Assembly (NCBI GenBank): GCA_023246325.1
Contig: JAHFIO010000001.1
Location: 1 to 30,674, forward strand
DNA from: Candidatus Uhrbacteria bacterium
GTDB taxonomy: Bacteria > Patescibacteriota > Patescibacteriia > 2-12-FULL-60-25
Length of the DNA: 30,674 nucleotides
Reading direction: 5' to 3'
Part shown: one piece after another, positions 19,231 to 22,636 of the stretch
Layout: every line of letters starts with the position of its first letter
Position numbering within the stretch: the first letter of the stretch is position 1
Program-made: the position numbers and the translations under genes
The notes under the pieces: model-generated
Told to the model about the DNA's origin: nothing
Seen by the model: the letters and a program-made list of their open reading frames with translations, nothing else
Databases searched by the model: none

Positions 19231-21138
19231 CTATTGACACACGGCACATTCTTCAGTGGCCACGTCTCGTTTTGTCGTAGCCATGGAAATATTTTCCGCA
19301 TGAATTGGTGATGATGAACGCAAATAATACAGTGTTTTTACACCGCTTTTCCAAGCAAGCATATGTGTTTCGTGTAAATATTTTCCACTAATAGGAGTTT
19401 GAAAAAATACATTCAATGATTGTGACTGACATATATACGGCTGTCTATCTGCTGCCTGTTGTACAATTTCTCGCATATTCATTTCATATGCAGTGCGAAA
19501 TACCTTCTTTTCATCTTCAGTCAATTCTGAAAGATGTTGTACCGATCCTTTGGCGGCAATGATACTTTTCCACATATCTTCTGTATTCGATCCCTTTATT
19601 TCTAACAATTTTTCTAAAAATGCATTTTTTACTAAGAAAGAGCCGGATAATGTTTTTTGTAGATACGCATTTCCTGCTATGGGCTCAATGCTTGGTGATG
19701 CTTGCCCACAAATAAATGCAGTTGACGCTGTGGGCTGAACAGATAATATATAGCTATTACGGCGCGTGCCACCGTCCAAAGGCAAACCTAATTCAACACC
19801 CAATTTTTCTGATGCTTCATATGCGTGTTTTTGAATATTCTGAAAAATTTCCTTGTTCACAAGGCGTGCCTGTAAACTTTCAAATGGAATCATTTTACTC
19901 ATAAGATATCCATGGTAACCCATAACACCCAAGCCAATGGATCTCTCATGTTTTACCGAATGAATAGCTTTTTTAAATTCAATAGGATCAGCCATTTCAC
20001 AAAATGTTTCCAAATTATTATCTAAAGCACGTACACAAAGATCTACCATCTCCGCAATACAATCTTTCCATTCATCATAATGTTCTAAATTTAAATTGCC
20101 TAAACAACATACCGCCGTACGCGTTTCATCAGTTGGTAAAACAATCTCAGTACATAAATTACTTTGTCGCACTAATAATCCTAATTTTTTATGATGTTCA
20201 GGACGTGCAGCATTTATTGTATCAAGAAAAATAATATATGGTTCACCAGTTTCTGCACGCATAGTAAGTAATCTTCTCCACATTTCTAGTGCATTCAGTT
20301 TTTTTGTCGGAGTTTTATAATGCGGATCAATCAGTTCATACTCTCTTCCCTCTTCTACCGCCCTCATAAATTCATCGGTAATAGCTACTCCATTATTAAT
20401 ATTCAAACACTTACGATCAGGATCTCCACCTGTTGGTTTACGCATTTCAAGAAAATCTTCAATATCAGGATGATCAATTCGCAAATATGCGGCAGCCGCA
20501 CCACGACGCGTTGAATTACGCGATATAGCGATAGTTTCAGAGTCCATTATTTTCAAAAAAGGAATAACACCGGATGATTTTAAGCCACTAGATTGTAATG
20601 GTGAATTTTGACCGCGTAATTGCGACCAATCCGTGCCAATACCCCCACCATATTTTGCTAAAAATGCATTTTCTCTATATATATCAAATATTCCCTCTAG
20701 TGTATCTGGCACGGTATTTAAAAAGCAGGATATGGGTAAACCCTTGGTTGTTCCAATATTCATAAGTACAGGTGTGGCAGGAGTAAACCATAATTTACTC
20801 ATATAGTCGTATAATTTTTGTGCCATTCTTGCATTTCCTCGACACATGCCTGTTGCCACACGTGCATAAAATGATTGTGGGTTTTCACAAACATCTCCAT
20901 GCGCATCTTTCAAAAAATATCTATCACGCAAGTTTTCCAAACCAAAATATCCTAATCCTGTATTTCTTTTTTCATCCAATAGTATTGATTGTTGAATTTT
21001 TTTATCAACGGAATAATGCGGACAATCCCAAGAATGTTTATCTTTTGTTTTTTCAACAATATCTATCAAAAGTAAATCACGAGCTGCGACTAAATCATTT
21101 GCTGATAATGCATCAATGACGTTTGTGAAGTTTGTCAT
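19231..21138 (-). CDS. nrdA: Class Ia ribonucleotide reductase alpha subunit, no ATP cone
   Basis: TPATP, ISCF (C138), GGGIG, QSNLCTE, VCCLG, RSIGLG, QPTAS, CQSQSLN, KTLYYLR, C-terminal CAVC. Confidence 0.96.
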   Translation of the reverse strand: MTNFTNVIDALSANDLVAARDLLLIDIVEKTKDKHSWDCPHYSVDKKIQQSILLDEKRNTGLGYFGLENLRDRYFLKDAHGDVCENPQSFYARVATGMCRGNARMAQKLYDYMSKLWFTPATPVLMNIGTTKGLPISCFLNTVPDTLEGIFDIYRENAFLAKYGGGIGTDWSQLRGQNSPLQSSGLKSSGVIPFLKIMDSETIAISRNSTRRGAAAAYLRIDHPDIEDFLEMRKPTGGDPDRKCLNINNGVAITDEFMRAVEEGREYELIDPHYKTPTKKLNALEMWRRLLTMRAETGEPYIIFLDTINAARPEHHKKLGLLVRQSNLCTEIVLPTDETRTAVCCLGNLNLEHYDEWKDCIAEMVDLCVRALDNNLETFCEMADPIEFKKAIHSVKHERSIGLGVMGYHGYLMSKMIPFESLQARLVNKEIFQNIQKHAYEASEKLGVELGLPLDGGTRRNSYILSVQPTASTAFICGQASPSIEPIAGNAYLQKTLSGSFLVKNAFLEKLLEIKGSNTEDMWKSIIAAKGSVQHLSELTEDEKKVFRTAYEMNMREIVQQAADRQPYICQSQSLNVFFQTPISGKYLHETHMLAWKSGVKTLYYLRSSSPIHAENISMATTKRDVATEECAVCQ

Positions 21139-21185
21139 ATGTGAGGAAATAAGGTTCGTTATTTATATTTTTTATTTGAAAGTTT

Positions 21186-22151
21186 TTAATTCCAATCAGC
21201 AACTATAGACCCTTTTGAATATTCTGTAGCTCTATTTTCAAAAAAGTTTGTGTGTTCTTTTGCATTCACCATGATATCAAGCCACCCCAAGGGATTCGTT
21301 CCGTTATATAATTTATCAAGACCAAGTTCAAATAATTTCCGATCTGCTATATATCGTATATATTGTTTTACCTGTGGGGCAGTTAAACCAGGAACATCTC
21401 CCATGGAAAAACACGTATCAATAAAAGCATCTTCTAATCGCACCATATCTCGACATGCTTGATACAATGTATCTCGTAAATCTTGAGTCCATATATGTCG
21501 GTTTTCTTTTACCAAATCACGAAATAATTCACATACACCTTGACTATGCAATGTTTCATCACGAATAGACCATGTGACAATTTGACCAACACCTTTTAAT
21601 TTTCCCAATCTTGGGAAATTCATTAAAATAGCAAAACTAGAAAATAGACTCATTCCTTCCATAAATCCACCAAATACCGCAAGATTAATAGCAAGTTCTT
21701 CTACATTTCGTGCATCAAAACCACGTATATAATCATACTTACTTCTCATAGATTCAAATTCAAGAAATGCAGAATATTCTTTTTCCGGTAATCCCAATGT
21801 GTCATTTAAAAATGAATATGCCCACACATGAATTCCCTCCATAGCAGCAAATGCCGATAACATCATCTTAATTTCAGGTTTTGGAAAGGCGGGAATTAAA
21901 CGTGAATTATAATTATTGTTCACTTCAATATCTCCTTGCGTAAAAAAACGTAAAATTTGTGTAATCAAACTTATTTCACTTTGTGATAAATTAAATCGGT
22001 AATCAGAAATATCATTCTCCATAGGAATTTCCGTTGGCATCCAATGAGCTTGATTTTGTTTTTGAAAATATTCAAAATATTTTGGATATTCAAAAGGTCT
22101 ATAGAACGGCCTATGTGTTAATAAGGGACTTGCACCAATGAGCAAACTCAT
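21186..22151 (-). CDS. nrdB: Class Ia ribonucleotide reductase beta subunit
   Basis: Metal ligands D74, E105, H108, E165, E199, H202; radical Tyr112; C-terminal NFFE..ATEY. Confidence 0.96.
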   Translation of the reverse strand: MSLLIGASPLLTHRPFYRPFEYPKYFEYFQKQNQAHWMPTEIPMENDISDYRFNLSQSEISLITQILRFFTQGDIEVNNNYNSRLIPAFPKPEIKMMLSAFAAMEGIHVWAYSFLNDTLGLPEKEYSAFLEFESMRSKYDYIRGFDARNVEELAINLAVFGGFMEGMSLFSSFAILMNFPRLGKLKGVGQIVTWSIRDETLHSQGVCELFRDLVKENRHIWTQDLRDTLYQACRDMVRLEDAFIDTCFSMGDVPGLTAPQVKQYIRYIADRKLFELGLDKLYNGTNPLGWLDIMVNAKEHTNFFENRATEYSKGSIVADWN

Positions 22152-22153
22152 AT

Positions 22154-22636
22154 TTAAATAATTGCTCCCTGTCGATCATTTTGGACATCATTCCCTAAAG
22201 TATCTGGCATTCCTGGGTCTCCATGAACACCTAAAGCATGCCTATCTTCTGAAGTTAAAAACTTTAAAGATAACCAACGAAAAATATAATCAACAATAGA
22301 TGATGCTTGAGGTATATTTGGATTTTTTGTTGCTCCCGCAGGATCAAATTTCATATGTGCATACTTTGCGACTAAGATTTTTAATGGCATGCCATATTGC
22401 AATGCCAAAGAAATTGATACAGCGAATGCATCTACTATGCCACTAATAGCACCGGATTCACGTCCCATACGTAAAAATATTTCTCCGGGCGCGCCATCTT
22501 CATATAAACCTACGGTTATATACCCTTGATGATTCGCAATTTCAAATTTATGAGTTATAGATCGTCTTTCGTCTGGCAATCGTCGTCTACGCGCTGTATA
22601 GAGATCAGAACTGGATTGTGGAAGTGGAAGTGTCAT
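22154..22636 (-). CDS. Stand-alone NrdJ C-terminal (TSCPD-type) domain with no cysteines
   Basis: RRRLPDERRSITHKF, GYITVGLYEDGAPGEIF, SISLALQYG, KFDPAG, SSIVDYIFRWL resemble class II RNR C-terminal domains; ends without a Zn-finger or redox Cys. Confidence 0.85.
   Translation of the reverse strand: MTLPLPQSSSDLYTARRRRLPDERRSITHKFEIANHQGYITVGLYEDGAPGEIFLRMGRESGAISGIVDAFAVSISLALQYGMPLKILVAKYAHMKFDPAGATKNPNIPQASSIVDYIFRWLSLKFLTSEDRHALGVHGDPGMPDTLGNDVQNDRQGAII

Follow-up and report, generated by a model that had tools for sequence, protein, structure and literature searches.

What is the C-terminal domain of a B12-dependent class II ribonucleotide reductase (RNR) doing at the head of a class I RNR operon? 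The question is raised by a 30,674-nt stretch of DNA from a Candidatus Uhrbacteria bacterium (GenBank assembly GCA_023246325.1, contig JAHFIO010000001.1, positions 1 to 30,674; the whole stretch is called the window, and its genome G000), in which an intact open reading frame (ORF) of 160 aa, resembling the C-terminal domain of the class II enzyme NrdJ, precedes the class I genes nrdB and nrdA. The class I operon occupies an old nrdJ slot, with an exonuclease gene and an NrdR operator in common with nrdJ loci. The orphan gene is conserved under purifying selection, and its product is genetically tied to NrdB by gene fusions, a short intergenic gap and adjacency. On balance we favour the view that the protein is a third or accessory subunit, derived from NrdJ, of a cone-less and class Id-like class I RNR, kept after a class I cassette took the nrdJ slot.

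The three-gene operon and the origin of its first product

The three genes are aligned head to tail on the minus strand in the order 160-aa ORF (22636..22154), nrdB (22151..21186, 321 aa) and nrdA (21138..19231, 635 aa). The features of the operon, including the parts of the 160-aa product, are as follows.

22154..22636, minus strand: gene for a stand-alone TSCPD or IscU-like protein of 160 aa, NrdJ-derived, cone-less and Cys-free (Pfam and NCBIfam matches, identity to the family's NrdJ, AlphaFold2 model, AFDB matches)
22565..22591, minus strand: basic N-terminal arm RRRRLPDER, aa 16-24 (invariant columns R17, L20, E23 and R24 in both alignments; model confidence)
22232..22564, minus strand: predicted folded core, aa 25-135, three strands then helices, IscU-like topology (AlphaFold2 secondary structure; weak PDB fold matches)
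22157..22177, minus strand: C-terminal tail motif DRQGAII (orphan tails compared with NrdJ linkers)
21186..22151, minus strand: nrdB, class I radical-generating subunit (PF00268, E 1.7e-71; NF007186 above cut-off; E-x-x-H-x-x-x-Y motif)
19231..21138, minus strand: nrdA, minimal catalytic subunit without an ATP-cone, C-terminal CAVC (PF00317 and PF02867, no PF03477; NF006577 above cut-off)

The frame of the 160-aa ORF is intact and holds no Cys codon. It matched PF12637 (TSCPD) with E 2.4e-10 (41 bits against a curated cut-off of 22.8) and the NrdJ model NF005122 (960 positions) over positions 737-864 with E 8.3e-49; PF03477 (ATP-cone) was not matched. The four Cys residues conserved in cluster-type members of the TSCPD family, including the TSCPD motif, are not present. 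Since the TSCPD domains of the family's NrdJ also have no conserved Cys in the alignment, this absence is normal for an NrdJ-type domain, and the protein is, by profile match and alignment, a member of the Cys-free NrdJ subtype of PF12637. Two nucleotides separate the TAA stop of the ORF from the ATG of nrdB at 22151. An earlier sequence-only reading of this DNA had described an intact, Cys-free ORF of 160 aa of the NrdJ C-terminal type, placed first after the NrdR boxes, with its stop 2 nt before nrdB and without an NrdJ catalytic domain in the window. The database matches agree with this description on each point, and no NrdJ catalytic domain was detected elsewhere in G000 either. The same reading had placed the end of the ORF about where the Cys-rich tail of NrdJ would begin, which was not the case, the protein ending right after the motif DRQGAII.

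The meaning of this end point was apparent from comparison with relatives. Sixty relatives were searched, and the window's family was represented by 37 genomes (G000 and 36 others). TSCPD, nrdB and nrdA were found in that order in 21 of the 37, G000 included, covering 19 genera, while a full-length NrdJ (about 950-1140 aa) containing TSCPD, without nrdB, was found in 13. One genome carried a different class I enzyme without TSCPD and two carried no RNR; the class-I-type and nrdJ-type states were never found together in one family genome. NrdJ of this family is composed, in order, of ATP-cone, class II N-domain, barrel, TSCPD, linker and Cys-rich zinc-finger tail. A linker motif, Q-x-S/T-L-L-D/E, is located between the TSCPD domain and the zinc finger, 25-60 residues past the TSCPD fold, in 11 of the 13 family NrdJ (loci L043-L061). 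Most orphan proteins retain it at their C-terminus or close to it, DRQGAII being the version in this genome. The zinc-finger Cys tail itself was seen in each of the 20 NrdJ compared and in none of the 21 orphan proteins. The basic arm RRRRLPDER is nearly invariant in orphan proteins and NrdJ alike.

Identity between the orphan TSCPD domains and those of the family's NrdJ was 55-65%. In the TSCPD tree, the 18 unfused orphan domains formed one clade (support 96/96) nested inside the family's NrdJ, and the three domains fused to NrdB formed a second clade among NrdJ with weaker support. In some relatives the orphan protein also carries an ATP-cone, and these cones aligned best with the N-terminal cones of NrdJ from the same family (31-52% identity), over a stretch that includes the segment before the cone and the KRDG-type nucleotide-binding motif and that ends exactly where the class II N-domain starts in NrdJ. 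From the cone and TSCPD matches together, the accessory protein is therefore best described as NrdJ minus its catalytic middle and zinc finger. An origin from NrdJ is thus shown.

The AlphaFold2 model, built from a 53-row alignment, gave a predicted local distance difference test score (pLDDT) above 90 for the core (aa 30-130), while the N-terminal arm and the tail were of low confidence (pLDDT about 54 for aa 1-20 in this isolated model). A sequence search of the PDB gave no solved relative of the 160-aa protein and a Foldseek search of the PDB gave nothing significant. With an exhaustive structural aligner, the IscU chains 1Q48 and 4EB5 came top among PDB entries as weak matches (Z 5.4-5.5). 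The fold matches in AFDB were all NrdJ or small RNR-annotated proteins. These results are in agreement with Burnim 2022 (PMC9669993), in which the same domain of NrdJ was named IscU-like and most class II copies were reported to be without the cluster cysteines.

As for the two class I subunits, Tyr at the radical position and the D/E/H ligand motifs are readable in the NrdB sequence, the identity of the metal not being readable from sequence. NrdA ends in ECAVCQ, and its length is 633-656 aa across all class-I-type loci. The best solved matches to NrdA were the class Id minimal alpha chains 6DQW and 6DQX (E 5e-109 and 2.5e-101), and the best to NrdB was 9DWS, followed by Chlamydia-type or class Ic chains; a literature search for the PDB code 9DWS found nothing. 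With class Id as the nearest alpha and 9DWS as the nearest beta, the label "class Ia" that the operon had been given at first is not established. The search for NrdB homologues gave only close relatives within Patescibacteria and so no donor for the class I cassette.

The chromosomal slot, the family and selection

The upstream region of the operon holds the following features; two examples of a gene found beside nrdJ in relatives are added.

22827-22812 and 22795-22780, minus strand: tandem NrdR boxes, 16-bp palindromes 32 bp apart, with TATAAT between them
22867..23454, minus strand: RNase_H_2-type exonuclease gene, conserved left flank (Pfam; tblastn)
G018:C1:358629-359159 and G024:C3:583870-584397: corrinoid adenosyltransferase genes next to nrdJ

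The NrdR boxes are conserved in the RNR locus (L024) of the same-genus relative G001 and in most other relatives. Paired boxes with 32-33 bp spacing were detected in 15 of the 21 class-I-type loci, including that of G000, and in 8 of the 17 nrdJ loci scanned, most of the other loci scanned having one box. A promoter scan gave nothing above chance. By tblastn, 18 class-I-type loci have the exonuclease gene as the immediate upstream neighbour of the operon. Of the 20 nrdJ loci, 12 have it upstream of nrdJ within the reach of the retrieved flanks; BipA (23517-25313 in the window) lies a few kb further out in class-I-type and nrdJ-type loci alike. Because NrdJ with the same exonuclease neighbour occurs also in other families of the class, NrdJ is taken as the older state.

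A gene for the corrinoid adenosyltransferase CobA/CobO (PF02572) was present in 13 of 13 family genomes with nrdJ, mostly just downstream of it, and in none of the 21 class-I-type genomes, indicating that the loss of the NrdJ core was accompanied by that of B12 handling. Taken with the shared slot and operator, this pattern indicates that the exchange removed the core of the B12 enzyme and the gene activating its cofactor, and placed nrdB-nrdA under the old operator. In the BipA tree (loci L087-L126), genomes of the nrdJ type and the class I type are interleaved, and the well-supported branches force at least 5 switches. This hints that the cassettes have been exchanged among family members by way of their conserved flanks, although BipA is only one marker and disagrees with the genus assignment in one case.

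The rest of G000 is in line with a single reductase. In this assembly (894 kb in 134 contigs, 93.5% complete), profile searches detected one RNR barrel (nrdA, PF02867), one TSCPD domain (the 160-aa ORF) and one ATP-cone gene, the last being a 169-aa open frame on contig C131 that fits NrdR. An NrdJ barrel was detected neither in the window nor elsewhere in this 93.5% complete genome, CobA/CobO/BtuR adenosyltransferase was not found in G000, and no second RNR barrel was found in G000 or in the 20 other class-I-type genomes, several of which are 99-100% complete.

The orphan domain occurs in several forms. Ten of the 21 genomes encode, in front of nrdB, a protein of 266-408 aa composed of a PF03477 ATP-cone and then TSCPD. 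One of these proteins is that of G001 (304 aa), the TSCPD part of which is 76% identical to that of the window. In three genomes, belonging to three genera, a single ORF of 576-626 aa encodes ATP-cone, TSCPD and NrdB. The cone-less class consists of the window's protein and those of seven other sampled genomes, and a cone-less TSCPD-NrdB fusion of 471 aa was found in a metagenome and belongs by its sequence signature to the fused lineage. The ATP-cone was lost at least 4 times on the TSCPD tree, the window's genome being one such loss, and losses took place inside three genera that also hold cone-bearing species. This full form with the NrdJ ATP-cone, and its loss in G000, had been missed by the sequence-only reading.

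The whole family, represented by 127 species-level genomes in 33 genera, was then surveyed, the form being judged from the sizes of the open frames. A TSCPD domain was detected in 110 of the 127 genomes, no match having an internal stop, and the frame sizes suggest that about 54 species in 19 genera have the short, cone-bearing or NrdB-fused form. The form is stable within genera, for instance cone-bearing in 9 of 9 species of one genus, cone-less in 6 of 6 in each of two, and fused in 3 of 3 and 2 of 2. The order BipA ... exonuclease, TSCPD, nrdB, nrdA is repeated on metagenome contigs, and the matching records carry the source names Patescibacteria, Candidatus Uhrbacteria and Candidatus Magasanikbacteria. 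Between the TSCPD stop and the nrdB start the median distance over 22 loci is 9 nt, with a 4-nt overlap in six, and the median distance from nrdB to nrdA is 47 nt.

For the measurement of selection, pairwise ratios of non-synonymous to synonymous substitution (dN/dS) between genera were unusable because dS was saturated, as it was even for the same-genus pair G000/G001, and within-genus pairs of other genera were used instead, from five genera holding only the cone-less form, or as pairs of that form. The TSCPD core gave dN/dS of 0.008-0.08 within genera (dS 0.4-2.7 in most pairs and 3.6 in two), and NrdB of the same genomes fell in the same range. The TSCPD alignment has 37 invariant columns over 53 sequences. 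On the TSCPD tree G000 has a terminal branch of 0.21, no longer than the 0.31 of its cone-bearing sister. The NrdA tree recovered the same subclades as the TSCPD tree, indicating that the three genes travel together. A role of the ORF as a mere translational-coupling leader for nrdB was considered and rejected, for the constraint, as measured by dN/dS, acts at the amino-acid level.

Several observations were made beside these. In G001, a two-gene Thoeris-like cassette (L024:4950-6352), absent from the window, is inserted between nrdB and nrdA, encoding a ThsB TIR protein of 167 aa (PF08937, E 1.8e-19) and a ThsA Macro protein of 300 aa (PF20016, E 1.1e-30); it parts nrdB from nrdA by 1.47 kb and leaves the TSCPD-nrdB adjacency intact. 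Two metagenome proteins, P0131 (584 aa) and P0153 (573 aa), consist of an N-terminal SIR2_2 domain and then the NrdJ-type Cys-free TSCPD domain, in two copies each by Pfam, both copies being readable in the P0131 sequence. This architecture resembles those of defence systems and suggests that sensing or adaptor functions outside RNR are open to the domain. P0121 (325 aa) and P0123 (393 aa) each consist of a tandem pair of TSCPD domains, with no other recognisable domain. P0039 is a 157-aa TSCPD ORF on a 1.2-Mb contig, close to the contig end and in another gene context with no nrdB nearby, and may be a fragment of NrdJ. In G044, a genome of another family, an NrdJ barrel (positions 1-349 and 360-523) with TSCPD is distributed over separate open frames on two contigs (G044:C18:5012-6118 and G044:C19:3571-4605), which may reflect a genuinely split NrdJ, an intein or a broken assembly. 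On the 3' side of nrdA in the window (18899-19249), a very acidic putative ORF of 105 aa on the plus strand (18909..19226) overlaps a putative Ser-rich ORF of 116 aa on the minus strand, and a terminator-like hairpin on the minus strand (19115-19087) could close the RNR operon.

The proposed role and its competitors

The following course of events would account for the arrangement. A class I nrdB-nrdA cassette would have taken over the slot of nrdJ; the non-catalytic ends would have been retained, while nothing would have remained of the barrel, the zinc finger or the corrinoid adenosyltransferase gene next door. The full form is ATP-cone plus IscU-like domain, in some genomes a separate protein translated immediately before NrdB and in others an N-terminal extension of NrdB itself, and the window's genome has dropped the cone secondarily, leaving the IscU-like domain and the linker motif. 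The accessory protein would probably associate through NrdB, as an oligomerisation, docking or regulatory module. With the cone attached, it could exert on/off control by ATP and dATP, as the NrdB-borne cone does in Leeuwenhoekiella; the cone-less form in the window may have an oligomerisation or tethering role alone, and transcription control by NrdR would be the only ATP-cone-based regulation left.

By analogy with characterised enzymes, the accessory protein is probably a third subunit acting via NrdB. Loderer 2017 (PMC5704485) showed that the C-terminal region of 150-220 aa of Stackebrandtia NrdJd, which contains this domain, is required for the formation of tetramers and hexamers induced by dATP and dGTP, and gave hints of an extra (third) nucleotide site in NrdJ with this region. 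In Leeuwenhoekiella, the ATP-cone borne by NrdB switches off a cone-less class I enzyme by oligomerising NrdB (Rozman Grinberg 2018, PMC5794259). A complex prediction with two NrdB and two TSCPD chains, using custom alignments, scored 0.00 and gave no verdict, counting neither for nor against binding.

Several points weigh on the other side. No role was reported for the IscU-like domain by Burnim 2022 (PMC9669993), and the PDB sequence search leaves the domain without a solved structure. Oligomerisation was mapped to the whole C-terminal region of NrdJ, zinc finger included, and not to the domain alone (PMC5704485). The cone has been lost repeatedly and the domain kept; therefore, the main value of the domain cannot lie in cone-dependent regulation. 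Forcing all 21 orphans to be monophyletic costs 6.8 log-likelihood units, with a borderline p of 0.041 in the approximately unbiased (AU) test, which leaves room for one derivation or two. It is also not evident how a domain tuned to the NrdJ barrel would have been of immediate use to an unrelated class I enzyme.

The sequence-only reading had offered two options for the locus. As to the first, a snapshot of the replacement of class II by class I in place, the replacement in the old slot under the old operator stands, with the domain nested among the family's NrdJ; the idea of a transient state does not, in view of the 21 genomes and the low dN/dS. The second option, a domain repurposed as an accessory subunit, is supported by synteny, purifying selection, coupling to nrdB, the NrdB fusions and the cone partner in relatives. 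The sequence-based tests proposed at that time pointed the same way: the survey of relatives found the three-gene order in 21 of 37 family genomes, so that the orphan is not unique to this one, dN/dS is far from the value near 1 expected of a vestige, and a search for nrdJ elsewhere in the genome found no NrdJa. Purifying selection and synteny thus favour the second option, and the two options are parts of one story.

The domain outlives the cone in fused and unfused lineages alike and must therefore have a value of its own. A bolder form of the accessory-subunit reading, which we put forward only tentatively, takes the IscU-like domain as a class-independent RNR module and a genuine third class I subunit that drives oligomerisation control, possibly with a purine deoxynucleoside triphosphate (dNTP) site of its own made up of the basic arm and a remodelled IscU pocket, the cone being an optional add-on in trans.

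Metal handling, a redox relay and a sensor independent of RNR each fit less of the evidence than the accessory-subunit reading. In the first, a re-used IscU scaffold would load or activate the dimetal site of NrdB, in analogy to NrdI. The predicted IscU-like fold and the coupling or fusion of the gene to NrdB rather than NrdA would agree with it, as would the invariant polar residues D47, E52, K59, E60, S113 and D116, which by a reading of the predicted topology may lie in loops corresponding to the cluster site of IscU. However, the domain offers no Cys or His ligands, and it differs hardly at all from its counterpart in NrdJ, a B12 enzyme without a dimetal site, whereas the acquisition of a new function should have left it altered. 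We regard metal handling as unlikely.

A redox-relay helper would dock a reductant or guide the C-terminal Cys pair of the catalytic subunit, which is on the zinc-finger tail in NrdJ and is CAVC in NrdA. Such a role would be transferable between RNR classes, the domain directly precedes the redox tail in NrdJ, and a glutaredoxin is found at the equivalent N-terminal position on Facklamia NrdB (PMC6187632). We nevertheless give it little credence, since the protein, having no Cys, could not carry electrons itself, no reductant gene was seen in the operon, and the linkage is to NrdB and not to NrdA, whose tail needs the reduction. It seems equally improbable that the protein is a sensor or adaptor whose ligand is another protein or a small molecule (a purine dNTP, for instance) and which is only a passenger in the operon. 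The fusions of NrdJ-type TSCPD to SIR2-like domains, its tandem pairs and the hints of a third nucleotide site (Loderer 2017, PMC5704485) are consistent with sensing, but the strict co-location and co-inheritance with nrdB-nrdA and the covalent fusions to NrdB weigh against it.

Very improbable is a neutral vestige, in which a decaying remnant of nrdJ would be readable merely from its position between the promoter and nrdB. The ORF is indeed a piece of a larger ancestral gene, of which barrel and redox tail are gone, and the cone was lost repeatedly. Neutral decay is contradicted by dN/dS values equal to those of NrdB, by the invariant columns, by the intact short frames without internal stops in about 54 species of 19 genera and by the existence of NrdB fusions, and there is no sign of an overlapping constraint, such as RNA structure, behind the amino-acid conservation. 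That the ORF is an ordinary NrdJb whose NrdJa is encoded elsewhere has next to no probability: NrdJa+b systems exist and NrdJb bears the IscU-like domain (Burnim 2022, PMC9669993), but nrdA is the sole RNR barrel in G000, each of the 20 other class-I-type genomes has one barrel gene, the zinc-finger Cys tail of NrdJb is missing and a corrinoid adenosyltransferase was not found.

Comparison with known systems

The presence of the domain in class II enzymes, the transfer of the ATP-cone to NrdB and the minimal cone-less NrdA were known already. Literature searches found no paper on an association of this class II domain, fused or separate, with a class I enzyme, no paper on an RNR operon with an ATP-cone protein encoded by a gene of its own, and nothing on TSCPD with RNR or on Patescibacteria with NrdJ. 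A large fraction of class II reductases carry the IscU-like domain, and according to the sole paper that names it no role of it has been reported (PMC9669993). In the family described here, the barrel, the B12 chemistry and the zinc finger have been removed by nature and the domain kept beside a reductase of another class, giving four natural constructs that differ in the presence of the cone and in fusion to NrdB. This retention also shows the function of the domain to be independent of B12, of the redox tail and of covalent attachment to the catalytic subunit. Within a single family of the Candidate Phyla Radiation (CPR), B12-dependent and O2-dependent RNR cassettes occupy one slot under one NrdR operator, which is relevant to the way in which bacteria with minimal genomes trade cofactor dependence. 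If the protein is a third-subunit module, it would be the first trans-acting allosteric subunit described for RNR, and a function would be at hand for the IscU-like domain of class II.

Five known systems can be compared with this operon. The small proteins NrdI and NrdH of class Ib operons are likewise non-catalytic, encoded within an RNR operon and co-expressed with its subunits, but their folds (flavodoxin and glutaredoxin) are unrelated, and their roles in cofactor activation and reduction are established. The class Id alpha chains of Flavobacterium johnsoniae and Actinobacillus ureae (6DQW/6DQX) are as short as the NrdA of the window and also lack the ATP-cone, whereas the NrdB of the window is nearer to 9DWS and Chlamydia-type beta than to class Id beta and keeps Tyr at the radical position. 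The split NrdJb is, like the protein described here, a small separate protein with the IscU-like domain. In contrast, it keeps the Cys-rich zinc finger and has an NrdJa barrel partner, both of which are missing here, where the partners are the class I nrdB and nrdA.

The ATP-cone::NrdB fusions, such as Leeuwenhoekiella blandensis NrdBi (PMC5794259) and Facklamia ignava Grx::ATP-cone::NrdB (PMC6187632), share with this family a minimal catalytic subunit without a cone and add-ons at the N-terminus of NrdB, and in relatives of G000 the likeness extends to cone, TSCPD and NrdB in one chain. The add-on here differs in that it includes an IscU-like domain, derives from a class II enzyme and forms a separate polypeptide in most genera, and the cone is missing in the window. 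The closest likeness is to the IscU-like domain of class II enzymes (PMC9669993; part of the region named "CRD" in Stackebrandtia nassauensis NrdJd, PMC5704485), which belongs to the same PF12637 family, with 55-65% identity in the case of the family's own NrdJ, the same Cys-free variant, the basic arm and the linker motif. Unlike that domain, the protein of the window is free-standing at 160 aa (fused to NrdB in some relatives), is encoded in a class I operon without barrel or zinc finger, and belongs to a genome in which no B12 handling genes were found.

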